Positions 50,132 to 64,000 of a stretch of DNA of 64,000 nucleotides are shown piece after piece. The stretch covers positions 288,001 to 352,000 of the forward strand of contig JALWXN010000004.1 of assembly GCA_027078545.1 (NCBI GenBank). Direction: 5' to 3'. Position numbers and translations under genes: made by a program. Under the pieces are notes generated by a model that was not told where the DNA came from, searched no databases, and saw only the letters and a list, made by a program, of their open reading frames with translations. Every line of letters starts with the position of its first letter. The stretch's first letter is position 1. This stretch comes from Nitrososphaeria archaeon. GTDB lineage: Archaea; Thermoproteota; Nitrososphaeria; Geothermarchaeales; JDFR-13.

Positions 50132-50362
50132 ATGACTCCGAGGACTGCATACACGATAGTTGCGTTGATAGGCTTCATTATCGGGGTTGCGATATATCTA
50201 TTTGCTGCACTGGCAATCCCATACATTATTGAGGTGTTGCCACAGTTGGCGGAGATCTTCAGTAGGTATCATCACATCATCGGTGCTCTTCTCTCAGGGT
50301 TTGTCGGGAGTCTCGTGGCTGTATTGCTAGCCTATGTATGGGCTAGTAGGTCTGAGTTTTAG
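50132..50362 (+). CDS. Small two-TM hypothetical protein
   Basis: 76-aa hydrophobic ORF preceded by a TATA-like TTTTATTA. Confidence 0.65.
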   Translation: MTPRTAYTIVALIGFIIGVAIYLFAALAIPYIIEVLPQLAEIFSRYHHIIGALLSGFVGSLVAVLLAYVWASRSEF

Positions 50363-51669
50363 CCCCTCCTATAGTATCTCGATACCTTTATTACACCCTC
50401 CACATTATCCCTGGTCACCAGTCTCAGTGCGGTTCTATACCCATTCATCCTTAGCTCGTGGTCTATGCATACTAGGTATGGGTGTGGATAGTTGCTAAGC
50501 CTCTTAATAGTCCTGTCCAGCCCCTTCCTCGCCTCCCCATCCTCCCTTATCGTCAACTGTATGTGTACCATTCCTCCATAGGTGTCGGGCGTGATGTCTA
50601 GTGTTATGTTTGGGAGGAGGCTCTCCAACAAAGCCTTATAAAGCTTAAGCTTCTCCATGAGGGTGAGCCTGTCATAGTCTGTGAAGATCTGTTTGAGGAC
50701 CTTTGTTGTGGAGTCGTATACCAGCTTGTCGCCATCGCTATAACTTTCTAGGGCCGTCTCCGTCATGGTCTCCAACATCCTGTTAAGTGTCGCTAGTTTT
50801 CTGAGGGGTGTGAGTGGAGCCTCCAAGGGTATCTTGTTCGTTGCGTCGTAGAGGTCTATATAGTGCTTCAGTGGTGAGGAGTAGGTCCTGAAATTCTTTA
50901 TCAGTGTCTCTATGGTCTCGGCCACCCTCTGGTTTGTGAAGTGCAACGCCCTATCCTCGTCTAGGACTATCCCTTCCCGCTGGTCTGAGACCACATAGGT
51001 CTTTGTTATGGGGTCTGAGTCTGTTATGGAGAGGTCTGTATAGTAGTCTAGTTTTGCGTGTTGGAATAGGCCTCCCTCTATCATCCAGCTGACGAGCTGG
51101 ATCTTCACATCCTTTTTACTCACCTTCTTAATAACATCCTTCATCTCCCCGCCGCTGAAGAGGTCTATGTGGTGTGGTGATACTAGGAGGATGAGCTCCC
51201 TCTTACTGTTGGAGATTATTTCTCGGAGCAGCTCCTTCCTATCCTCGTTACCCACCTCCCATAGACTTATCTCCTTCTTCTCCCGTTTGAGGGAGGCCTC
51301 TGTATATCTCTTGTGGAGCTCCTGTATGGCTAGCTCCTGCCTCTGTATCCGGTTCTTACTCTCCTCTATCCTCTTGTAGAAGAGTTTTAGTGGGTCCTCC
51401 GCCCTCCACCTCCTCGGGTTCCCCTGTATCATCTTCGCGAATCCCTTATCCACCAGTGACTTCAGTATCCGGTATGTCTTCTCCCTCGCCACTCCTGATT
51501 CGCGTGCCACGTCGCTGGCCTTCGCCTCCCCAAGGGTTACCAGTGCGAGGTATACCTTCGCCTCATTCTTGGATAGCTGTAGCTCCTGGAGACGGGCGAC
51601 AATCTCCTCTTTTGATGTGGCGTCTCTAGCGTCTTCCAAGCCTCCTCCCCCCTCCAAAGGATATTTCAA
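50359..51669 (-). CDS. TrmB-family transcriptional regulator
   Basis: LS.NEAKVYLAL...AS.VA..SGV.R.K.Y.IL..L..KG wHTH followed by a PLD-like effector domain and an extra C-terminal region. Start may be about 10 codons later. Confidence 0.88.
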   Translation of the reverse strand: MKYPLEGGGGLEDARDATSKEEIVARLQELQLSKNEAKVYLALVTLGEAKASDVARESGVAREKTYRILKSLVDKGFAKMIQGNPRRWRAEDPLKLFYKRIEESKNRIQRQELAIQELHKRYTEASLKREKKEISLWEVGNEDRKELLREIISNSKRELILLVSPHHIDLFSGGEMKDVIKKVSKKDVKIQLVSWMIEGGLFQHAKLDYYTDLSITDSDPITKTYVVSDQREGIVLDEDRALHFTNQRVAETIETLIKNFRTYSSPLKHYIDLYDATNKIPLEAPLTPLRKLATLNRMLETMTETALESYSDGDKLVYDSTTKVLKQIFTDYDRLTLMEKLKLYKALLESLLPNITLDITPDTYGGMVHIQLTIREDGEARKGLDRTIKRLSNYPHPYLVCIDHELRMNGYRTALRLVTRDNVEGVIKVSRYYRRG

Positions 51670-51782
51670 GGGTGTGTGACTAAGATGCTTGTGTAACGGG
51701 ACACTGATGAAATAGGCACATGGCCTTAATAAATCGGCTCCACCCCCATCTAGTAGAATCTATTATCGCCGAGGTGTCCGGG

Positions 51783-52448
51783 ATGGTCGACTTTAGGGAT
51801 CTCTGGACCGGGAAGAAGGAGGGATTCGCCGACAGTATGAAGCGTGGACTGAAGCCGCAGCGCAACATCAGGCCGAAGATCGACAGCGCTATCAAGCTCC
51901 TCAACAAGCAGATCAATAAGCTCGACGCCTCCATAAGGAATCTGAAGCAGAAGGACCAGATCTACTTCGCGAAGGTTGTCCAGGCTATCAAGGATCACGA
52001 CAAGACTATGGCCACCCTTTATGCTAATGAGCTGGTCGAGATTAGGAAGGCTATTAGGACTCTTAAGCAGGCTAAGTATGCCCTGCAGAGCGTGGTTGTG
52101 AGGCTGCAGACTGTGCAGAACATAAGCGACGCGGCTGCCGAGGTACTGCCCGCTATGCAGGTGCTTAAGAATGTTAGGAGCATGATCTCCGTGATCATAC
52201 CCACTGTCGATGAGGGCTTCGCCCAGATCAACGATGTCTTTGAGAACCTGATATGGGAGGCTAGCCAGAGCAGCGACACAACAACATCTATAGCCACGGC
52301 TAGTGACGAGGCTCTGAAGATCATCCACGAGGCTGAGAAGAAGGCTAAGGAGGAGATGAGGCGGGAGCTGCCCGGTATACCTGAGGCTGTTGCCGAGTCT
52401 GAGGAGGGCTACGGCGAGAGTGGTGAGTATGGCGGCTTCCGCTTCTAG
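51783..52448 (+). CDS. ESCRT-III / CdvB paralogue (Snf7 domain, no wHTH)
   Basis: A.LYANEL.EIRK, L..V.VRLQTV, EA.KII.EAE, MIM2-like RELPGIP; GAGGTG RBS before ATG 51783. Confidence 0.9.
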   Translation: MVDFRDLWTGKKEGFADSMKRGLKPQRNIRPKIDSAIKLLNKQINKLDASIRNLKQKDQIYFAKVVQAIKDHDKTMATLYANELVEIRKAIRTLKQAKYALQSVVVRLQTVQNISDAAAEVLPAMQVLKNVRSMISVIIPTVDEGFAQINDVFENLIWEASQSSDTTTSIATASDEALKIIHEAEKKAKEEMRRELPGIPEAVAESEEGYGESGEYGGFRF

Positions 52449-53109
52449 ACCCCACCCCTCATCTTTTTACCACTTGATTGGTAGGAATGTTGTTGAGAGG
52501 TATGGACGTTTCAGGGGGCGTGTAGTCTCCTATAAGGTCACCTCGGATGGTGAGCTGGATAAGGTCTTCATCTCGAACGACGGCTTCATAATGTATAAGA
52601 CCCCGTCCTCCCTCATCCTGGATGGGAAGGTCGTGATGATCGTCCCCCCGCCCATTAAGAGGGCGAGGGAGGTCTTGGATGAGCTTGAATACATATATCT
52701 CCAGATGAAGACCCTCAACAACATCTTCTCCATAGACTCCCGCTGGGGGTATGTGGAGAAGTATTACCGCATGTTCAGGACCCGGTTCGAGTCACTCCTG
52801 AAGGAGGTTAACCGGGTCCTGAGGAGCCTGGAGAATAGGAGGCGTAGGCTCAACGAGTTGATAGCCGAGTATAAGGAGGGGCTCTTCACCCTCCAGCTCG
52901 CCCAGGAGTCTGGGCGGGTGGATCCAAACATCTATAAGGCATGCTACGCGGAGGTCTCTGAGGAGATCCTCCGCCTAAGCAATGAGCTTGAGGAGGTTGA
53001 GAACATCATATCCGACATCTCAACCTCCCAGAACCAGATACTCGAGATCATGAACTCGATTGAGGAGAGGTTGAAGGAGGTGGAGGGTTATGAAGTTGAG
53101 GAGGTTTAG
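52429..53109 (+). CDS. cdvA: CdvA-like protein (PRC barrel plus coiled coil)
   Basis: IG..V...YGR..G.VV PRC-barrel start, long coiled coil with L.L....G.V....Y; upstream of cdvB-cdvC. Confidence 0.78.
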   Translation: MAASASRPHPSSFYHLIGRNVVERYGRFRGRVVSYKVTSDGELDKVFISNDGFIMYKTPSSLILDGKVVMIVPPPIKRAREVLDELEYIYLQMKTLNNIFSIDSRWGYVEKYYRMFRTRFESLLKEVNRVLRSLENRRRRLNELIAEYKEGLFTLQLAQESGRVDPNIYKACYAEVSEEILRLSNELEEVENIISDISTSQNQILEIMNSIEERLKEVEGYEVEEV

Positions 53110-53974
53110 GTTTGGGGAGATTATCCAGGTTTATGATCAGATGGGTAGGCAGCTATACGTCTACAGGGGACGCCTATCGATGGAGCTGGCCAAGGTGAAT
53201 AATAGGCTGGAGAAGCTGCAGGAGTACATGGATCTCTATAAGGAGCGTGGAGACCTTGAGATGGCGGCTATCTATGCTAGGGAGTATAAGGCCCTCTACG
53301 TTGTGAGGGAGATTCTCTGGCACATGATCCTACGCCTAGACGGTGTGATGGCTAGGATCGACACGGTTAAGAAGCTGGCCTCCGGCTTCGACGGTATGGG
53401 CGACACATTGAAGGCTGTGAGTGACGTGATTAAGGTTGCCGGCCCAGCTGTCTCGGGCTTCGAGGAGCTGGCCAGGAATCTATACACCGGCTATACTGAG
53501 CTGGTGGTAGATGCATCTGTCCCCGTGACTAACATGTATGTAGCCCCTGTGGAGGATGCTAAGGAGATCCTACGCAACATAGAGAAGGATGTTGTGAAGG
53601 AGTTGGCTAAGAAGTTCCCAAAGATCCCCAGGGATATAGAGGTGAGTCCAGAGGCGATACCAAAGCTTGTGAATAGGCTCTACGAGGCCATAGCCACGGA
53701 TGGCGGTGTGGCCGAGGTCATGGTGAAGCCGAGGGATGAGGAGGTTGTGGGTATTGTCAGGGTCTCCCTGAATAGGGAGGAGCTCTACAGGGTCTCTATG
53801 CACAGGCTGGAGAGGCTTGAGAGGGCGGTCCTCAACTACCTCCTGAAGAACTATAGGGGTGGGGAGGTTTCACTCAACCTCTTCAGGTTTGCCAGGGCCT
53901 ATAGGACCACGCCTATGAAGGTTCTTGACGCGCTATACTCCCTGAGTGAGATAGGGTTGATTAGGTTTGGGTAG
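53090..53974 (+). CDS. cdvB: ESCRT-III CdvB with C-terminal winged helix
   Basis: A.IYARE, RL.GV..RI.TV core, FPKIP MIM2-like motif, C-terminal VLNYL...V..AL..L...GLI wHTH. Confidence 0.82.
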   Translation: MKLRRFRFGEIIQVYDQMGRQLYVYRGRLSMELAKVNNRLEKLQEYMDLYKERGDLEMAAIYAREYKALYVVREILWHMILRLDGVMARIDTVKKLASGFDGMGDTLKAVSDVIKVAGPAVSGFEELARNLYTGYTELVVDASVPVTNMYVAPVEDAKEILRNIEKDVVKELAKKFPKIPRDIEVSPEAIPKLVNRLYEAIATDGGVAEVMVKPRDEEVVGIVRVSLNREELYRVSMHRLERLERAVLNYLLKNYRGGEVSLNLFRFARAYRTTPMKVLDALYSLSEIGLIRFG

Positions 53975-53985
53975 TGTGGTGTGGC

Positions 53986-55164
53986 ATGAGGAGCCTGAGA
54001 GACCCTGAAGAGATACGGTTGATGCGGGATCAGGCGGCCCAGTACGCCAATATGGCGGTCCAGGCCGATAAGAGGGGGGTGACCTCCCTCGCCATCAGCT
54101 ACTATAACAAGGCGATCGACCTCCTCACGGAGCTCATCAATATCGAGGAGTCGCCGGAGATACGTAGGATGTATAGGAAGGCCCTTCGCCAGTATAGGGA
54201 TAGGGTTAACTATTTGAGGGGGGTCTCCTCAGGCTCCGTTAGGAATGTCTCGAGCCTCGGTGTGAGGGAGGGCGGCCCCTCTGGCCAGGAGCATGGGAAG
54301 GAGGATGTATTAGTCCCCTTCAAGTCCAGCATTACGTGGGATGAGATTATTGGTCTTGAGGAGGCTAAGAAGACTATTCGCCAGTCCATCGTATACCCTG
54401 TGAAGAGGCCCGACCTCTTCCCCCTAGGCTTCCCTAGGGCTATACTCCTCTACGGCCCGCCTGGATGTGGTAAGACCAGTATAGCGGCGGCCCTCTCCAA
54501 CGAGATCGAGGCTGAGTTCTATCCAGTCGACGCGACGATGATCATGTCTAAGTGGCTGGGTGAGAGTGAGAAGAGGGTTGCCAAGATATTCAACTATCTC
54601 AGGGAGAGGGCCCGTGAGAGGCCCGTCATCCTCTATATTGATGAGGTGGACTCGATACTCAGTGTTAGGAATAGTGAGGTGGGTGGTGAGCTCAGGGTTA
54701 GGAACCAGTTCCTCAGCGAGATGGATGGCCTTAAGACTAAGGAGATGTCTGACCTCCCACTCTTCATAGTGGCGAGTACCAATAGGCCTTGGGACCTGGA
54801 CATGGGTTTTATCAGGCGTTTCCAGAAGAGGATCTATATTCCTCCTCCTGATAAGAGGACTAGGAAGCAGCTCTTCCAATACTTCCTATCGAAGGTCTCC
54901 CACTCCGACGATATAGACCTAGACTTCCTCGCAGACTATACCCGTGACTATACCCCGAGCGATATTAGGGATGTTGTCCAGACTGCTGTCATCGAGGTTG
55001 TCTCCGAGCTCTTCGAGAGTGGCCGTGCCTCAGACCCGAATGCCAAGCCGAGGCCCCTGACGATGGATGATCTTAAGCATGCCTTGAAGAGGGTGAAGCC
55101 CAGTATATCCAGGACCCTGCTCAACGCCTATGAGCAGTGGACGAGTAGGTTCAAGAGTATATAG
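53986..55164 (+). CDS. cdvC: Vps4/CdvC AAA+ ATPase with MIT domain
   Basis: AV.ADK.G...AI..Y.KAI MIT domain; GPPGCGKT, YIDEVD, TNRPWDLD, RRFQKR. Confidence 0.95.
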   Translation: MRSLRDPEEIRLMRDQAAQYANMAVQADKRGVTSLAISYYNKAIDLLTELINIEESPEIRRMYRKALRQYRDRVNYLRGVSSGSVRNVSSLGVREGGPSGQEHGKEDVLVPFKSSITWDEIIGLEEAKKTIRQSIVYPVKRPDLFPLGFPRAILLYGPPGCGKTSIAAALSNEIEAEFYPVDATMIMSKWLGESEKRVAKIFNYLRERARERPVILYIDEVDSILSVRNSEVGGELRVRNQFLSEMDGLKTKEMSDLPLFIVASTNRPWDLDMGFIRRFQKRIYIPPPDKRTRKQLFQYFLSKVSHSDDIDLDFLADYTRDYTPSDIRDVVQTAVIEVVSELFESGRASDPNAKPRPLTMDDLKHALKRVKPSISRTLLNAYEQWTSRFKSI

Positions 55165-58731: not shown

Positions 58732-58807
58732 TGGTGGGCCCGCCCGGACTCGAACCGGGGACCTCCGGCGTGTGAGGCCGGCGTCATAGCCTCTAGACCA
58801 CGGGCCC
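58732..58807 (-). tRNA. tRNA-Val(CAC), intron-less, CCA encoded
   Basis: Reverse complement GGGCCCG...CCGGC CT CAC AC GCCGG...TTCGAGT...CGGGCCC ACCA. Confidence 0.95.
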
Positions 58808-58862: not shown

Positions 58863-59426
58863 TTGGGGATGAGGCTGGGTATTACTGGCACGCCTGGCAC
58901 TGGTAAGACAACGATATCGAGGCTGCTTGGCGAGGCATTGGGGCTCCCAGTCATCCATCTAGACGACGTCATTATTAGGGAGGGGCTTGTAGAGGGGTTT
59001 GACGAGAGGCGTGGGAGCCTCGTAGCTGATGTGGAGCGGGTTACAGAGGCCGCCCCTAGACTAGTCAGTGTCGACGGTGTGTATGAGGGCCTATCAATAA
59101 TCTATATAGAGGATCCAAGCGTCTTCGACTGGATTGTTGTCCTTAGGTGTAGCCCCTACGTCTTGGAGGAGCGGCTTAGGGCGAAGGGCTTCCCCGAGGA
59201 GAAGGTTAGGGAGAACGTTGAGGCTGAGATCCTGGATATAGTCTATTCCGAGGCACTCAGGATATATGGTGGGAAGGTTCTCCAGGTAGATAATACCGGG
59301 GATCCCCGTGAGACTGTGGAGCGGATCATGGATAAGCTGGGTAGGGGTGACGCTAGGTGCGACTCTGTGGACTGGCTGGGCCTGATATATGAGAGGGGTG
59401 ATTTCCAACGCTTCTTCCGTGGCTAG
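58863..59426 (+). CDS. AK6/Fap7-type adenylate kinase
   Basis: ITGTPGTGKTT, VLRC.P..L..RL..KG....KV.EN..AE. Confidence 0.92.
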   Translation: MGMRLGITGTPGTGKTTISRLLGEALGLPVIHLDDVIIREGLVEGFDERRGSLVADVERVTEAAPRLVSVDGVYEGLSIIYIEDPSVFDWIVVLRCSPYVLEERLRAKGFPEEKVRENVEAEILDIVYSEALRIYGGKVLQVDNTGDPRETVERIMDKLGRGDARCDSVDWLGLIYERGDFQRFFRG

Positions 59427-60919
59427 GCGTTGGGCTCTATCCTGACAGGGAATGGTAGTGGGTTCCTACTATCCTTTACCAGTGCCTCCCCAACGCCTAG
59501 CTGCTTCACATACTCTATCTGCTCCTCATTCATAGAGACGATGTTCCTGATGTATGTCAGGTCCTCCCACCCTGTTAGGCGGTGGATTATGACTAGCCCT
59601 GCGTTCTTCAGTGGGGCCTTCGCTATCTGGGAGGGGAACTGGGTTATAATTGCTATGGCCTCCCCGAACTTACGTATCTCATCCATGATCTTCTCCGCCA
59701 CTGTTGGTGGGTCGTACTCTCTACGGGCTGGTATTAGGTAGCGGGCCTCCTCGAGTACTGTTACGTGGCTTAGGCTCTTCATACCGCTGAGCCTCTGGTG
59801 GTTAAAGAGCCTCTTGAGTAGTATGTATCCGAATATCTTCCTGAGGTTAACCTCGTGTATATGTCCAAGCTCTATCACGGTGTTCCTCTGGACTATATCC
59901 TCTATCCTTATGGTCTCCCCCTGGCCGAATATCTTGGCTCCTTGGCCCGCCACTAGTTGTTTCAGCCTCCTGAGTAGGGCTGCCTTGGTCTCGTGCTCGC
60001 TATAGGATTTTATGGGGAACTGTTCTATGATGCTTATCAATGCCCTTATGTTGGGCTCCTTCTCGCCTACTAGGTGGTATCTCGAGTATGTCGCCTCTAG
60101 TGCGGTCTTGAAGAAGTATTGCTGTGGATGGGTGAATCCGTAGACCTCGCTGAATATGTCGGTGATTATGGATGCGCTGTCCTCTATGTCCCCCTCATCC
60201 TTTATGGGGTTGAGCACCGCCTCCCCTAGTCCAGGCCTTATGACTAGGTCTAAGTTCTTGAGCTTCGATGCATACTCGTTGTGGTAGTCTAGGACTAGGT
60301 ATGGGGTGTCCCTTGGGAGCTGGTTGAGTATGGTGGCTATCGTGGTGGTCTTGCCCATCCCTGTGGAGCCTATGCATGCTATGTGGCTGGATAGCTGGTC
60401 TATGGGTATTACGTAGTCCTCACCCGTGTCTACCAGTCTGCCCAGCCTTATAGTAGCCTTACCAGGCCTGCTCTGGACGGGTAGTTTGAATAGTCCCCTA
60501 GGCTTGACCAGCTGTAGGTCTCCCCCGGACTCGAACCTTATGTAGTGCTCCCCCCTACCACCATTCCTCAGTCTCCACCTGTATATCGTCGATATCTCTC
60601 CATCACCTACTAGCTCCACCTCGTAGTCTGGGAATGCTGTTAGGACTATATTCCTTATTGCCTGTGCCTTTGAGAGGGCGGCCTCCCTAGAATCTCCCCT
60701 GGTGACTATGTATAGGCCTTCGTGCCTCCCGTCGACGTAGTGTATTATCTGTACTGGTATGTGGAGGTTCTTGAAGGCCTTGATCATGTTCCTATAGGCT
60801 GTGACGTGTTGATAGGCCTTCACCCTCCCCTCATCTATCTCTGGGCTGCTCCCCAGTATCTTCACCCCGGCCATATACTCCCTCTTCGACCCGTTTAGCC
60901 TAGGGATTAGCCTCTTCAT
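59423..60919 (-). CDS. HerA/VirB4-like (DUF87) P-loop ATPase
   Basis: HIACIGSTGMGKTT, LDYHNEY, VLEEAR, E.RKFG, ITQ.P. Confidence 0.88.
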   Translation of the reverse strand: MKRLIPRLNGSKREYMAGVKILGSSPEIDEGRVKAYQHVTAYRNMIKAFKNLHIPVQIIHYVDGRHEGLYIVTRGDSREAALSKAQAIRNIVLTAFPDYEVELVGDGEISTIYRWRLRNGGRGEHYIRFESGGDLQLVKPRGLFKLPVQSRPGKATIRLGRLVDTGEDYVIPIDQLSSHIACIGSTGMGKTTTIATILNQLPRDTPYLVLDYHNEYASKLKNLDLVIRPGLGEAVLNPIKDEGDIEDSASIITDIFSEVYGFTHPQQYFFKTALEATYSRYHLVGEKEPNIRALISIIEQFPIKSYSEHETKAALLRRLKQLVAGQGAKIFGQGETIRIEDIVQRNTVIELGHIHEVNLRKIFGYILLKRLFNHQRLSGMKSLSHVTVLEEARYLIPARREYDPPTVAEKIMDEIRKFGEAIAIITQFPSQIAKAPLKNAGLVIIHRLTGWEDLTYIRNIVSMNEEQIEYVKQLGVGEALVKDSRNPLPFPVRIEPNA

Positions 60920-60933
60920 CTATCCTGTCCCCT

Positions 60934-61113
60934 CTATAGGAATGGGAATAGTGTGTCCCACCACCACTGTACCGCGTCGAAGAAGGTCTGGATAGCCTCC
61001 TGGATCTTCTCGTAGATCATGTTGGCTGCCCCCATAGCTATCCCGATCCCTAGCAGGGCCACTATGATTAGTAGGCCCTCCTCGATGATCTGGGCTCCAC
61101 GCCTCCTCCTCAT
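60934..61113 (-). CDS. Flp-like type IV pilin with class III signal peptide (59 aa; missed by the ORF track)
   Basis: Manual translation MRRRRG|AQIIEEGLLIIVALLGIGIAMGAANMIYEKIQEAIQTFFDAVQWWWDTLFPFL: basic leader, Gly-1, Glu+5, hydrophobic helix. Confidence 0.85.
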   Translation of the reverse strand: MRRRRGAQIIEEGLLIIVALLGIGIAMGAANMIYEKIQEAIQTFFDAVQWWWDTLFPFL

Positions 61114-61186
61114 GGTGCATCCCCATCCATTAGGGGTTGTGGCAGTGTTAAAGGTGGTGGAGAGGGTTGTGAAACTATTCCCACCA

Positions 61187-61693
61187 CTATCCCAGTAGTG
61201 GTCTTGTGAATCCGGTTCCCAGGATGGTTGCGAATATGTATATCACTATGTTCCTGAGTAGACCTCTCCTGTCTGGGCCGTGGAAGATCCATGTGATTAG
61301 TGCTGTCTGTAGTAGGCCGAAGAGCCTGTATATCAGTGTGTCTCCCCCTCCAAATGTTATTAAAAGGTTCTCGGTTATCGTTATCCCGCTGATAACTTCT
61401 AGGACGGGTATCGTCGCCCCGAGTGTGAAGGCCGCTGTGGCTGATAGTATAGATAGCCTCCTCATTATCTGCCGCTCCTTGTTCCTCAGCCTCCCTAGGA
61501 ACTTCTCCTGGAGTATAACCGTCTTTGTGTAGCCGCGTATAACCTCGGTCCTCCTAGATATTGCCTCTAGGTCTGTCTCCACCTCCCTATTCCTGATGTA
61601 GTTTCTCAGCCTCTCTAGCTCCCCCTCCTCGTAGAGTGCTCTGGCCACTGATCTTCCTTTGAGTATCTTGTCGAGTATCTCTATCAGCCCCAT
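61187..61693 (-). CDS. Membrane protein, possibly a TadC-like platform fragment
   Basis: Soluble helical N-terminal half plus about three TM helices; in operon after the Tad ATPase. Confidence 0.5.
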   Translation of the reverse strand: MGLIEILDKILKGRSVARALYEEGELERLRNYIRNREVETDLEAISRRTEVIRGYTKTVILQEKFLGRLRNKERQIMRRLSILSATAAFTLGATIPVLEVISGITITENLLITFGGGDTLIYRLFGLLQTALITWIFHGPDRRGLLRNIVIYIFATILGTGFTRPLLG

Positions 61694-62161
61694 CTACCTC
61701 GCCACCCTTGTAAGTATCCTTGTTAGTAGGGCCTGGAGTATGGGTATTGGTAAGAGTATCCAGGGGCCTAGTGGGATCGTGGCTATCAGTGCGAGGAGGG
61801 GTGGGAAGACTGTTACTGCGCTTATGAGTGCTGCCTTGACGTCCAGGTTCTCCACCTCCCTCTCCAGCCTGTCTATCTCTAGCTCAATGTCTGATGCCGC
61901 TGTCTCGACCACTATCTCAGGGTCTTCAGCAACTTCTACCCCACCTACTCTGTCTATATCCTCGAACAAGAGGTTCTTCTCCAGGTCTCCACTGGATATT
62001 AGGGCTGCTCTTAGCGGGCTACCCGAGACTATGTATTCGGATAGCTCCATGAACCTGGTGGCTATACCCGAGCCACTTAGGGCTTCCCACACCCCCCTCC
62101 CCATAGCCAGTGCCGCGGCTATGTGGCTTAGTATTAGGAGGGTTATTAGTACTGCCTCCAC
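61694..62161 (-). CDS. Membrane protein, possibly a TadB-like platform fragment
   Basis: SGSPLRAAL segment (T2SSF-like G.PL..AL) and C-terminal TM hairpin; overlaps the ATPase stop. Confidence 0.55.
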   Translation of the reverse strand: MEAVLITLLILSHIAAALAMGRGVWEALSGSGIATRFMELSEYIVSGSPLRAALISSGDLEKNLLFEDIDRVGGVEVAEDPEIVVETAASDIELEIDRLEREVENLDVKAALISAVTVFPPLLALIATIPLGPWILLPIPILQALLTRILTRVAR

Positions 62162-63342
62162 GCTACTAATCCCTCCTCCAACTCTTCTGAGAGGTATATG
62201 TCTCTAAGGTATCTCCTCCCCGTGTGGAGGTCCCTTGCAGTTATTAGTACCAGGCCTACCTGTTTCAATGCTGCTTCGTATCCCTCTCCGAAGCCTCTTC
62301 CCAGCCTCATTATGAGGCTCTCTATATCGCTGGCGTGGATGGTGGCCATGACCCTTATACCCATGAGCAGGGTCTCGAGCATGTGCTGGATATCGTTGTT
62401 GGTTATGACCTCTCCATATACTACGTAGTCGGGGCTCCTCCTCAGGTTGAATAGGGTCTGTATCCCCCTCTTCTCAGACTCCACTATTCCCGACTGTCTA
62501 TAGTAGATGTGGTGGTAGCCGTGTGGCCTTAGGTCCTCCGTCTCCCTAGCCTCCTCTAGTATGAGTATCCTTAGGTGTCCAGGCATCTCCTTCAGTATGG
62601 CGTTTAGGAGGGTTGTCTTACCGCTGTTGGGCTCACCCATGATGAGTATCGATGGATACCTCCTCAGCTGCTCCAGTATGGTGATCCTCTGCTCATCGTC
62701 CATGAAGCCCCTCTCCACGAGGCCCTCCAGGGTGTTCCCACTCCCCATGTGCCTCCTTATGACGGCGTAGGTCTCTCCATGGGTTAGTGGGAATGTGTCT
62801 AGGACTATTCTGAACCTATCCCTGACTGTTGATATGTCGGCCTCTATCGAGCCTCCCCTCCTTGATACCCCCTCTGCAACTATCAGCTCGAGGATGCGTC
62901 TCAGGGCTGTTAGGCCGTCCTCCCCGATATACATGTTTGTCTTGTAGCTGGTCCCGTCCATCCTCCTAACCCTGATCTCGTTATCGCCCCCGAGAATGTA
63001 GATCTCCTGGTTCTCGGGGTCTGTCATCAGTATGTGGAGGGGTAGGAGGCCTATCGAGTCCCAGAAGGCTATCTCCCCTATCTCCTCATTCGCATCCTCT
63101 GAACCGCTCAGCCTCTCCAGTGCTTCGTGGATATTCCTCCTGAGGATCTCCTCCAGGGTTGGGTATCTACTTAGCCCACTGAATACTGGTAGCTCCCTCG
63201 ATAGTTCCTGTATATGTGTAGACGCCTCGAGGATCTCTGGTGTAAAGCCGTAGTACAGTGTTCCGCCCCTCCTCGTGAGGGCTATGTACCTGGTTATCCT
63301 AGCCTCCCACTCCTCCAGGATAGGTATGGAGCCAAGCCTCAT
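62146..63342 (-). CDS. Tad/VirB11-family pilus assembly ATPase
   Basis: DP...EIYI, GEPNSGKTT, LEE..E, LRRSPDY...GEV, ATIHA. Confidence 0.9.
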   Translation of the reverse strand: MRLGSIPILEEWEARITRYIALTRRGGTLYYGFTPEILEASTHIQELSRELPVFSGLSRYPTLEEILRRNIHEALERLSGSEDANEEIGEIAFWDSIGLLPLHILMTDPENQEIYILGGDNEIRVRRMDGTSYKTNMYIGEDGLTALRRILELIVAEGVSRRGGSIEADISTVRDRFRIVLDTFPLTHGETYAVIRRHMGSGNTLEGLVERGFMDDEQRITILEQLRRYPSILIMGEPNSGKTTLLNAILKEMPGHLRILILEEARETEDLRPHGYHHIYYRQSGIVESEKRGIQTLFNLRRSPDYVVYGEVITNNDIQHMLETLLMGIRVMATIHASDIESLIMRLGRGFGEGYEAALKQVGLVLITARDLHTGRRYLRDIYLSEELEEGLVAWRQY

Positions 63343-63433
63343 CCCGAGTAGGGATTGGCCCGGAGGAGTGGTAATAAATTATTTTCACTCATCACATCCC
63401 AGTTATAAGCTGCTGGAGAGCGGTATTAACGGG

Positions 63434-63559
63434 ATGAATAGGGTTCTGAGGCTGTTTGGAGACACTGCTCTGAAGGCTCTTATGCTTGGACTGGCTATAC
63501 TCGGCTTTCTCCACTTGGTGGGGGTGGTTAGGGATTGGATAGGTATGCTGCGACCCTGA
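63434..63559 (+). CDS. Tiny single-TM protein (41 aa)
   Basis: MNRVLRLFGDTALKALMLGLAILGFLHLVGVVRDWIGMLRP; first gene after the TATA-like TTATAA. Confidence 0.5.
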   Translation: MNRVLRLFGDTALKALMLGLAILGFLHLVGVVRDWIGMLRP

Positions 63560-63717
63560 TACTCGAGGTTGTATTGCTGGTTGTTCTCTCGGGGATCGCT
63601 CTGTTGATCGGTGGTCGTTTACTGGAGATTCTAGGCGTGGCTGTCTGTAGGCCTGAGGAGGTGGTTGTGGATAGGGGTCTATACCATGTCGTGTATAGGG
63701 TGGGTGTGAGGTGCTAG
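63535..63717 (+). CDS. Small single-TM protein (possible minor pilin)
   Basis: RYAATLILEVVLLVVL hydrophobic N-terminus with Glu; two Cys in the short tail. Confidence 0.5.
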   Translation: MDRYAATLILEVVLLVVLSGIALLIGGRLLEILGVAVCRPEEVVVDRGLYHVVYRVGVRC

Positions 63718-63830
63718 ACGACTTTATAGATACCCTGTTGAGCCTGGCCCTAGCCAGTGTATTTCTCCTGGTCCTCTCCCTAGTTGCCCTTGTCCTCCTC
63801 CTATTCCTGGGGGTGTTGCTTGGTGCTTAG
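63711..63830 (+). CDS. Tiny hydrophobic protein (39 aa)
   Basis: GTG-start ORF MLDDFIDTLLSLALASVFLLVLSLVALVLLLFLGVLLGA overlapping both neighbours. Confidence 0.45.
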   Translation: MLDDFIDTLLSLALASVFLLVLSLVALVLLLFLGVLLGA

Positions 63831-64000
63831 TAGGGTCTTGGCCCTTGTCGTGGGTGTCTCGGTACTGGTTATGAGTATTGGGAGTATCGTCCTCCTCCTG
63901 GTGGATTATGTCTCCTTCAGGCCTGTCCTCGACCCTTGTGAGGAGTTGTTGGCTGATGTTGGCCTGGGTAGGGTGGGCGTGGATGGTGTGTGGCGTGAGG
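63823..64000 (+). CDS. N-terminally anchored protein (partial, runs off the window)
   Basis: GTG-start MLSRVLALVVGVSVLVMSIGSIVLLLVDY..., open to the end of the window. Confidence 0.45.
   Translation, partial: MLSRVLALVVGVSVLVMSIGSIVLLLVDYVSFRPVLDPCEELLADVGLGRVGVDGVWRE

Follow-up and report, generated by a model that had tools for sequence, protein, structure and literature searches.

A type IV pilus operon in a thermophilic archaeon of the class Nitrososphaeria is joined to a gene for an ATPase of the CedD family, an arrangement that appears to be new; both kinds of machinery are known separately. The operon lies on the minus strand of a 64,000-nucleotide stretch of DNA (positions 288001-352000 of contig JALWXN010000004.1, here C4, of GenBank assembly GCA_027078545.1; hereafter the window) and comprises genes for a pilus ATPase, two short membrane proteins (memA and memB), a small class III prepilin and a 498-residue ATPase (Table 1). 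The assembly (G000) is 1.24 Mb in length and 92% complete. It is a Geothermarchaeota/Nitrososphaeria metagenome-assembled genome (MAG) and not that of a crenarchaeon. In an earlier interpretation made from the letters of the DNA without database searches, which we refer to as the sequence-only reading, the five open reading frames (ORFs) had been described correctly, with 14 nt between the pilin stop codon and the start of the gene for the 498-residue ATPase.

What is understood of archaeal DNA transfer comes, to our knowledge, from a handful of crenarchaea and their Ups/Ced and Ted systems. We propose, at roughly even odds, that the locus encodes a Tad/Epd-like type IV filament machine together with a CedD-family translocase for pilus-assisted DNA import or exchange. 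The DNA role in this proposal is supported indirectly, by homology to CedD, a VirB4/TrwB-like fold, a chromosomal slot shared with crenarchaeal cedD and a neighboring TFB paralogue. We found no description of a pilus operon with a CedD-type ATPase in the literature (PMC4858521 main text, PMC6668835, PMC9905601, PMC11823120, PMC11868833, PMC6563490).

The 498-residue ATPase and the CedD family

The 498-residue protein carries Walker A (GSTGMGKTT) and Walker B (VLEEA) motifs, and its best NCBIfam match is CedD (NF053655; E = 1.9e-48, 165 bits), where the alignment takes in the ATPase domain only, at model positions 215-519. Its scores on related models were 64 bits for HerA (cut-off 800), 32 bits for CedB and 19.5 bits for VirB4 (TIGR00929; cut-off 643). 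The cut-off of the CedD model is passed by Sulfolobaceae only, in 15 of 401 genomes. Desulfurococcales/Acidilobales proteins that are named CedD in the literature reach 220-270 bits on the same model, and the three other HerA-superfamily proteins encoded by the genome score 38-65 bits.

The sequence-only reading had proposed a phylogeny as a check on this ATPase, and the resulting tree (IQ-TREE, LG+C20, 62 sequences; support by the Shimodaira-Hasegawa-like approximate likelihood ratio test, SH-aLRT) groups it with CedD. A CedD-like superclade (support 95) leaves out CedB and the genome's three HerA-like paralogues. The superclade splits into a crenarchaeal CedD group (support 80), made up of the Sulfolobaceae proteins above the cut-off along with those of Staphylothermus and Caldisphaera, and a sister clade (support 99) that includes all 31 of the 31 pilus-linked proteins, the window ATPase among them.

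An AlphaFold2 (AF2) model of the protein (mean predicted local distance difference test, pLDDT, 84) has an alpha/beta N-terminal domain at about residues 15-120 followed by a C-terminal ATPase domain. With VIA-align, the model matched DndH-C (Z 32.3), the VirB4 C-terminal domain (4ag5; Z 32.0, root-mean-square deviation (rmsd) 2.6, 330 residues aligned), HerA (4d2i; Z 28.2) and the coupling protein TrwB (Z 24.7). HerA aligned from about residue 133 onward only, and therefore the predicted alpha/beta N-terminal domain has no HerA counterpart. That domain was covered only by full-length TrwK/VirB4 chains, and then loosely (412-418 residues, Z 21-23, rmsd ~14). Together, the NCBIfam scores, the tree and the fold narrow the HerA/VirB4-type label given by the sequence-only reading: judged from its sequence, the protein is a member of the CedD family in the broad sense, a VirB4/CedD-like translocase and not the repair HerA that is linked to NurA.

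CedD (Saci_0667 / SiRe_1715), recognized only in 2025, is essential for DNA import, whereas aggregation proceeds without it; its homologues have been traced within Crenarchaeota only (PMC11823120, PMC11868833). DNA uptake or exchange had already been suggested for this locus by the sequence-only reading, and because the closest characterized relative of its second ATPase is essential for DNA import, that link is strengthened; the function itself is one that we infer. The likeness to CedD, and to TedD of Thermoproteales, lies in the best family match, the sister-clade position and a membrane-anchored architecture in orthologues from other classes. Two N-terminal transmembrane helices occur in Sulfolobaceae CedD and in the pilus-linked orthologues of Methanosuratincola, of Brockarchaeota-labelled genomes and of others outside the class, so that these orthologues are built like CedD, with two transmembrane helices followed by an N-terminal domain and an ATPase domain. 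The locus is also like that of CedD in its setting, with the same chromosomal slot, an adjacent Fap7-like kinase gene and LSM and TFB paralogue genes nearby. It differs in that the window ATPase is encoded with type IV pilus genes and that CedA, CedA1, CedA2 and CedB, the partners of CedD in Sulfolobales, are not encoded alongside it. Neither CedB nor VirB4 was found in the assembly, and among 201 genomes CedB occurred only in Sulfolobaceae and one further crenarchaeal family.

In one genome labelled Nitrososphaerota (G414; locus L143:8233-10058), the CedD-like gene is present as two ORFs of 205 and 320 aa, which may reflect a frameshift, an assembly error or a genuine split.

The pilus genes and their divergent neighbors

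The first gene of the operon encodes a pilus ATPase (family F5) whose match to Pfam T2SSE is above the gathering score. Its translation contains the sequences GEPNSGKTT (Walker A), PDYVVYGEV (Walker B/Glu region) and ATIHA (His box). On NCBIfam models it is nearly tied between the TadA family (62 bits), FlaI (60 bits) and TrbB (59 bits), all far under their cut-offs. In a tree with crenarchaeal comparators only, a branch with support 100 sets the 30 F5 proteins off from all pilus ATPases of Sulfolobaceae and Staphylothermus and from the other pilus ATPase of the same genome. By profile score, the clade occurs in 85 of 401 sampled Thermoproteota genomes, with a gap between members (at least 304 bits) and all other proteins (at most 228 bits). 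A second, canonical T2SSE/T2SSF pilus pair is encoded in the same genome at C4:375855-377955. In Caldisphaera lagunensis, a 416-aa pilus ATPase (L131:1574-2824) is encoded about 5 kb from a lone cedD, and its place in the tree is among ordinary crenarchaeal pilus ATPases, outside the F5 clade.

The two short membrane proteins had been called platform-like from their sequences, and profile comparison bears this out. Neither has a Pfam match on its own, and memA has none in NCBIfam either. We built family profiles (A2 for memA, A3 for memB) from the orthologues in 20 related loci and compared them with an alignment of 18 single-domain T2SSF proteins that came from relatives and were verified with Pfam. 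The memA profile matched this set with an hhalign probability of 96.3% (E = 1.5e-9, 139 columns) and the memB profile with 88.3% (E = 2.9e-6), and four unrelated families from the same loci, used as controls, each stayed under 1%. The memA and memB families are also homologous to each other (83.5%, E = 8e-6), and direct Pfam T2SSF matches occur in 2 of 18 memB orthologues (best E = 9.9e-5; the orthologue in G031 scores 23.5 bits). The memA protein has one N-terminal and two C-terminal hydrophobic helices flanking a cytoplasmic helical region, and memB has an N-terminal cytoplasmic helical domain with a G-x-S-x-x-R-A-L motif, followed by 2-3 transmembrane helices. The AF2 model of memB (pLDDT 83) is all-helical. 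With this model, Foldseek against the PDB returned nothing at E <= 0.001, and VIA-align against representative chains gave generic helical matches only (Z <= 8.2). An hhalign comparison of the platform profiles with a single 540-aa TadC of the same genome was uninformative. On the profile evidence, memA and memB are the two halves of a T2SSF-type platform, one domain each.

The prepilin (family F4) begins MRRRRG|AQIIEEGLL, and the predicted cleavage after RRRRG would leave a mature protein of about 53 aa with Glu at positions +5 and +6 and an aromatic tail (WWW...FPF). Its designation as a class III Flp-type pilin in the sequence-only reading held across 31 orthologues, all of which keep the motif [KR][KR]G|[VAS]Q[LI][IV]EE; in the pilin alignment (A4), the Glu pair E11 and E12 is invariant, as is L15. 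The motif is followed by a hydrophobic helix and then by an amphipathic, aromatic-rich C-terminal helix. The window pilin has no Pfam or NCBIfam match, and Pfam Flp_Fap was matched by 1 of 20 family members (0.0034). Searched against the PDB, the pilin profile found its best real match in the N-terminus of Geobacter PilA, a weak match on the pilin motif (E = 0.1), and the search returned no match to the VirB2-like CedA1 or TedC pilins.

In every related locus, 3-5 genes run divergently from the pilus ATPase gene; their products, about 60-270 aa in length, carry a hydrophobic helix at the N-terminus, and some have an RRG-type class III start. With these genes and the TFB paralogue found in relatives, the locus is larger than the "minimal" one portrayed by the sequence-only reading. 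In this genome, the first divergent protein (60 aa) has a homologue in a related locus (L001; 38% identity, E = 1.8e-6), as does a 109-aa protein with a class III-like start (RRNG|Y) encoded beyond the window, after the 101-aa gene (33% identity, E = 1.5e-12). Ten of the divergent small proteins were without a Pfam or NCBIfam family match. It is plausible that they are minor pilins.

Two regions are candidates for promoters. A TTTAA element lies about 37 nt before the pilin ATG, and the gap that holds it may serve as an internal pilin promoter. The intergenic region between the ATPase operon and the divergent genes is a putative promoter region, as far as can be read from its bases. A TTTCAC-containing box, ATAGTTTCAC, is present upstream of the pilin gene (window 61150-61175) and a related box, ATTTTCAC, in the divergent intergenic region (window 63375-63400), next to TATA-like AT-rich elements.

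The hallmarks of Epd-like and Tad pili are two contiguous single-T2SSF platform genes and a very short major pilin of about 50 aa (PMC6668835). The window locus resembles Tad/Flp and Epd-like systems in its two adjacent single-T2SSF platform genes, its short pilin with Glu at +5 and its TadA/FlaI-type ATPase. It differs in the size of the platform halves (155 and 168 aa vs about 290-320 aa), in having the ATPase gene first and in its CedD-type ATPase, and no TadZ/FlaH-type second ATPase was seen in the operon. The "unusual" subclade 4D loci of the Pyrobaculum-Thermoproteus group are described as having a short pilus ATPase, a small, highly diverged TadC-like membrane protein and TFIIB, with no pilins reported (PMC4858521). 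Compared by description, these loci share with ours the short ATPase, the small TadC-like protein, the TFIIB homologue and adjacent core transcription genes; however, that description has neither pilins nor a HerA-type ATPase. The best Thermoproteus uzoniensis ATPase scores 205 bits on the F5 profile vs at least 304 bits for F5 members. TFIIB homologues are reported in many archaeal type IV pilus loci, and a HerA-type ATPase goes unmentioned in the main text of that paper (PMC4858521).

Conservation of the locus and its chromosomal setting

Homologues of the window ATPase were present in 33 of 301 sampled genomes of the class and in 0 of 181 genomes of a large mesophilic family (f6). Orthologues at the class level, with the same gene order, come from genomes whose source labels are Candidatus Geothermarchaeota, Conexivisphaerales and Nitrososphaeria. 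In all 20 class-level loci that were fetched, the pilin gene is the immediate upstream neighbor of the gene for the CedD-like ATPase. Of these loci, 18 keep the full gene order, one is cut by a contig end and one is rearranged. An arrangement so regular is far beyond chance. Neighborhood conservation, another check named by the sequence-only reading, thus came out in favor of the linkage, which is kept in other classes as well.

By ORF clustering, the conserved neighborhood consists of an LSM gene, a divergent TFB paralogue, the small divergent genes, the five-gene operon and a convergent gene for a Fap7-like kinase. It recurs in Geothermarchaeales, Conexivisphaerales, Methanosuratincola, Brockarchaeota-labelled, Nezhaarchaeales and other Thermoproteota genomes, and the kinase gene is the convergent neighbor in 22 of 22 class-level loci and in most phylum-level loci. 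The kinase is probably not part of the machine but a conserved marker of its flank. The slot between LSM and kinase was found in three states, the first of which, with pilus genes and a CedD-like ATPase in the order ATPase, memA, memB, pilin, CedD-like, was seen in 34 examined loci from several classes. Crenarchaeal cedD occupies the same slot: in Caldisphaera, Pyrolobus and two other genomes it converges with the Fap7-like kinase gene, in Staphylothermus it has LSM about 1 kb upstream, and in 12 of 12 Sulfolobaceae the genes stand in the order LSM, short Zn-ribbon TFB, thermosome, CedD. We looked for a pilin remnant upstream of crenarchaeal cedD and found none.

The trees of the pilus ATPase (F5) and of the CedD-like ATPase (F3) give the same groupings, and the module genes co-diverge with their hosts. 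Given the conserved core-gene slot, this co-divergence and the lack of an integrase, the module looks ancient, chromosomal and vertically inherited and not like a domesticated mobile element. The "domesticated hybrid" of the sequence-only reading is at odds with a slot among core genes that is conserved across Thermoproteota. That reading had seen no integrase or prepilin peptidase in the window; neither was found assembly-wide, with no tyrosine recombinase (PF00589) in the entire 1.24-Mb, 92%-complete assembly, and the tRNA-Val gene at 58732-58807 bears no signs of an integration site. The GC content of the locus genes is 0.52-0.54 vs 0.52 for the contig. In one genome labelled Thermoprotei archaeon (G452, family f52; loci L212 and L145), the TFB paralogue and the F5 ATPase gene are on one contig and the CedD-like gene is on another; its CedD-like protein falls within the pilus-linked clade, making this a dispersed version of the module.

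The TFB paralogue of the locus (family F6) flanks it in most lineages; in relatives it is 260-346 aa in length, with a Zn ribbon and a TFIIB repeat. In all 12 Sulfolobaceae genomes the paralogue is 166-202 aa, is recognizable by its Zn ribbon only and is encoded about 2 kb from cedD. This short protein looks like TFB3, which binds the promoter of SiRe_1715, that is, cedD (PMC6101594). Because the F6 profile aligns with the short Sulfolobaceae TFB over the Zn ribbon alone, the equivalence of the two paralogues rests on position and not on sequence. In the present genome, a 141-aa ORF stands where relatives carry the paralogue (C4:352376-352801, minus strand, 376 nt past the window end). It has no match in Pfam, in NCBIfam or to the F6 profile and is without a Zn ribbon. 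Since its weak match to the TFB paralogue of a neighbor genome (26% identity, E = 0.001) is limited to the first cyclin repeat and the Zn ribbon is lacking, it is probably a truncated TFB remnant. Outside the window, the genome also encodes a second divergent TFB paralogue of 267 aa (C4:61890-62693, plus strand; 45.7 bits on the F6 profile) and its canonical TFB (C4:580824-581804).

The features of the locus are collected in Table 1. The genes for the pilus ATPase and memA overlap by 16 nt, those for memA and memB abut, and the convergent kinase gene overlaps the CedD-like gene by 4 nt. Elsewhere in the window, a Cdv cell-division operon (51720-55164, plus strand) encodes a Snf7/ESCRT-III protein, a CdvA-like protein, a 294-aa protein and Vps4/CdvC, head-to-head with a gene for a 436-aa TrmB-family regulator (50359-51669, minus strand). 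This block is syntenic with the pilus locus across the family.

Table 1. Features of the pilus and CedD-family locus, in window coordinates.
Feature	Position	Strand	Remarks
tRNA-Val (CAC)	58732-58807	-	shortly upstream of the kinase gene
Fap7-like "putative kinase" (family F2)	58863..59426	+	Pfam AAA_18 9e-18; NCBIfam PRK03839 6.6e-31
CedD-family ATPase (family F3, P0005)	59423..60919	-	498 aa; Pfam DUF87 5.3e-15
Flp-like class III prepilin (family F4, P0004)	60934..61113	-	59 aa
Gap upstream of pilin gene	61114..61186	-	73 nt, read from sequence
Platform half 2, memB (P0003)	61187..61693	-	168 aa
Platform half 1, memA (P0002)	61694..62161	-	155 aa
Pilus ATPase (family F5, P0001)	62146..63342	-	398 aa; Pfam T2SSE 1.6e-15
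Divergent intergenic region between ATPase operon and small-gene string	63343..63534	.	AT-rich, AAATAATTTATTA on minus strand
First divergent gene	63535..63717	+	60 aa; a single hydrophobic helix over most of its length (MDRYAATLILEVVLLVV...)
Second divergent small membrane protein	63784..64000, runs off window	+	101 aa; start only inside window

Competing explanations and a proposed mechanism

Several observations weigh against a pilus-assisted DNA importer. The 165 bits of the window ATPase fall short of the 600 bits that the CedD model sets as its equivalog cut-off, and neither this protein nor any of its 22 class-level orthologues has a hydrophobic segment or transmembrane helix, so that it lacks the anchor that many, though not all, CedD proteins possess. 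A membrane channel (CedA/VirB6 or ComEC) was not identified, CedA itself not having been searched for. No A24 prepilin peptidase (PF01478) was found in the assembly or in a congener (G002, 89% complete). A search for a divergent one by tblastn, family profile and motif scan gave nothing credible, and an A24 peptidase is present in three other genera of the same family. Finally, the slot exists in two further states. In 8 loci (Culexarchaeum and Culexmicrobium of the Culexarchaeia, some Nezhaarchaeales, a Thermofilum-like MAG and family f65) it holds the pilus genes without a CedD-like gene, and the genes for pilin and kinase face each other directly; in crenarchaea it holds CedD without pilus genes. 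The direct linkage of pilus and translocase put forward by the sequence-only reading is therefore not obligatory; the parts can exist apart, and their adjacency may mean co-regulation. As a separate observation, the genome, in which no A24 peptidase was detected, encodes two pilus systems.

A first alternative is that two co-regulated machines are encoded side by side, an Ups-like pilus for adhesion or aggregation and a CedD-like ATPase belonging to a distinct DNA-import complex. In Sulfolobus, Ups and Ced cooperate as distinct machines and CedD is dispensable for aggregation (PMC11823120), and the TFB paralogue that flanks the locus in most lineages, like the pilus-only and CedD-only slots, fits such a view. 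The UV-induced, TFB3-driven Ups and Ced systems of Sulfolobales share with the window locus the combination of a type IV pilus, an ATPase of the CedD family and a TFB paralogue close by. However, the window pilus ATPase is distant from all Sulfolobaceae pilus ATPases and the pilin is Flp-like, not PilA-like; the parts stand in one operon here, whereas in Sulfolobus they are dispersed and are joined by the type IV secretion system (T4SS)-like CedA and CedB. No CedB, VirB4 or other T4SS-like partner with which a separate import complex could be built was found in the genome, the ATPase of the window lineage is without an anchor of its own and needs a membrane partner, and the 14-nt spacing between pilin and CedD-like genes belongs to a tight order that is kept across classes. 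We regard two separate machines as improbable, though deserving of serious attention.

It is also possible, though more doubtful still, that the CedD-like ATPase is a second pilus motor, serving retraction, pilin extraction or protein secretion in place of PilT, with no role in DNA transfer. It is encoded within the pilus operon, immediately behind the pilin; archaea lack PilT (PMC4858521), and yet archaeal pili are able to retract (cited in PMC11823120). Against this, CedD, the nearest characterized relative, is required for DNA import but dispensable for aggregation that depends on pili, the fold is of the VirB4/HerA/TrwB type found in translocases of DNA or other substrates and not of the PilT type, and pilus-only loci manage without the CedD-like ATPase.

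Two other origins are very improbable. The locus could be the remnant of an integrated conjugative element (ICE), since thaumarchaeal ICEs mix type IV pilus and T4SS parts, namely VirB4/VirD4, FlaI, TadC, prepilin peptidase, pilins and TFIIB (PMC6563490), and FlaI-like ATPase, TadC, pilins, TFIIB and HerA/FtsK-superfamily ATPases likewise co-occur in Nitrososphaeria; but the window locus has no integrase, VirB4/VirD4 pair or ParB, its core-gene flanks recur across classes, its gene trees match the host groupings, its GC content is that of the genome, and neither VirB4 nor CedB was found. A conjugative T4SS/ICE identity for the locus was rejected on the VirB4 score (19.5 vs 643 bits), the absence of PF00589 and the core-gene flanks, relaxase families not having been searched. 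The 498-residue ATPase could likewise be a repair-type HerA helicase beside pilus genes by chance, given its DUF87 domain and the HerA structures that rank among its top sequence and fold matches; but it scores 64 bits on the HerA model vs 165 on that of CedD, it stands apart from the genome's HerA-like paralogues in the tree, no NurA, Mre11 or Rad50 genes lie near it among its pilus and kinase neighbors, and its adjacency to the pilin gene is kept across classes. HerA of the HAS-barrel, NurA-linked kind was ruled out by the model scores, the predicted alpha/beta N-terminal domain, the neighbors and the tree.

For the pilus-assisted DNA import or exchange that we prefer, we envisage the following steps. 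The prepilin would be cleaved after its Arg-Arg-Gly leader, and the pilus ATPase, working on the split platform, would polymerize it, with the accessory pilin-like proteins as primers, into a thin filament or a pseudopilus. The filament would then touch a partner cell or free DNA. At the cytoplasmic face, a hexameric ring of the CedD-like protein would use ATP to pull DNA inward through the membrane, in the way that CedD is required in Sulfolobus. In most lineages the motor would be held in the membrane by its own two N-terminal transmembrane helices. The window lineage has lost this anchor, and its motor would have to attach to some other component of the membrane, of which the platform is the simplest candidate; both ATPases would then be coupled to one platform. 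With neither CedB nor VirB4 found in the genome, there are no candidate partners in sight other than the pilus genes. A complex prediction that combined memA and memB with the first 175 residues of the CedD-like protein (score 0.00, mark 0.32) is evidence neither way.

Bacterial competence pili (Com/T4P) operate with ComEC and ComFA, and transjugation in Thermus, discussed in PMC11868833, combines type IV pili with the HerA-like TdtA. Both resemble the machine proposed here, by analogy only, in uniting DNA capture by a type IV filament with an ATP-driven translocase. They differ in that the motor families are unrelated or distant, and no ComEC-like channel was identified at the window locus.

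More tentatively, and with the balance tilted against it, we speculate that the slot from LSM to the Fap7-like kinase is an ancestral Thermoproteota DNA-exchange locus, composed of a TFB3-type regulator, an Flp-like pilus and CedD, of which the short TFB and cedD of Sulfolobales are a remnant. If this were true, pilus-dependent DNA import would be widespread in uncultured TACK archaea, including the methanogenic Methanosuratincola, and would predate the T4SS-like Ced system.

The CedD family extends across Thermoproteota. Outside the crenarchaea, its gene is typically the last in an Flp-like pilus operon, and no CedB was found in the sampled carriers. Archaeal type IV pili are without a PilT, and the locus may supply them with a partner motor; it also suggests a route by which the DNA-damage regulon of Sulfolobus, with TFB3 and cedD, could have originated. 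Methanosuratincola and Conexivisphaerales now have cultured members, so experiments should be feasible. For large groups of uncultured thermophilic archaea, the locus offers a concrete candidate system of DNA uptake or exchange that can be put to the test.

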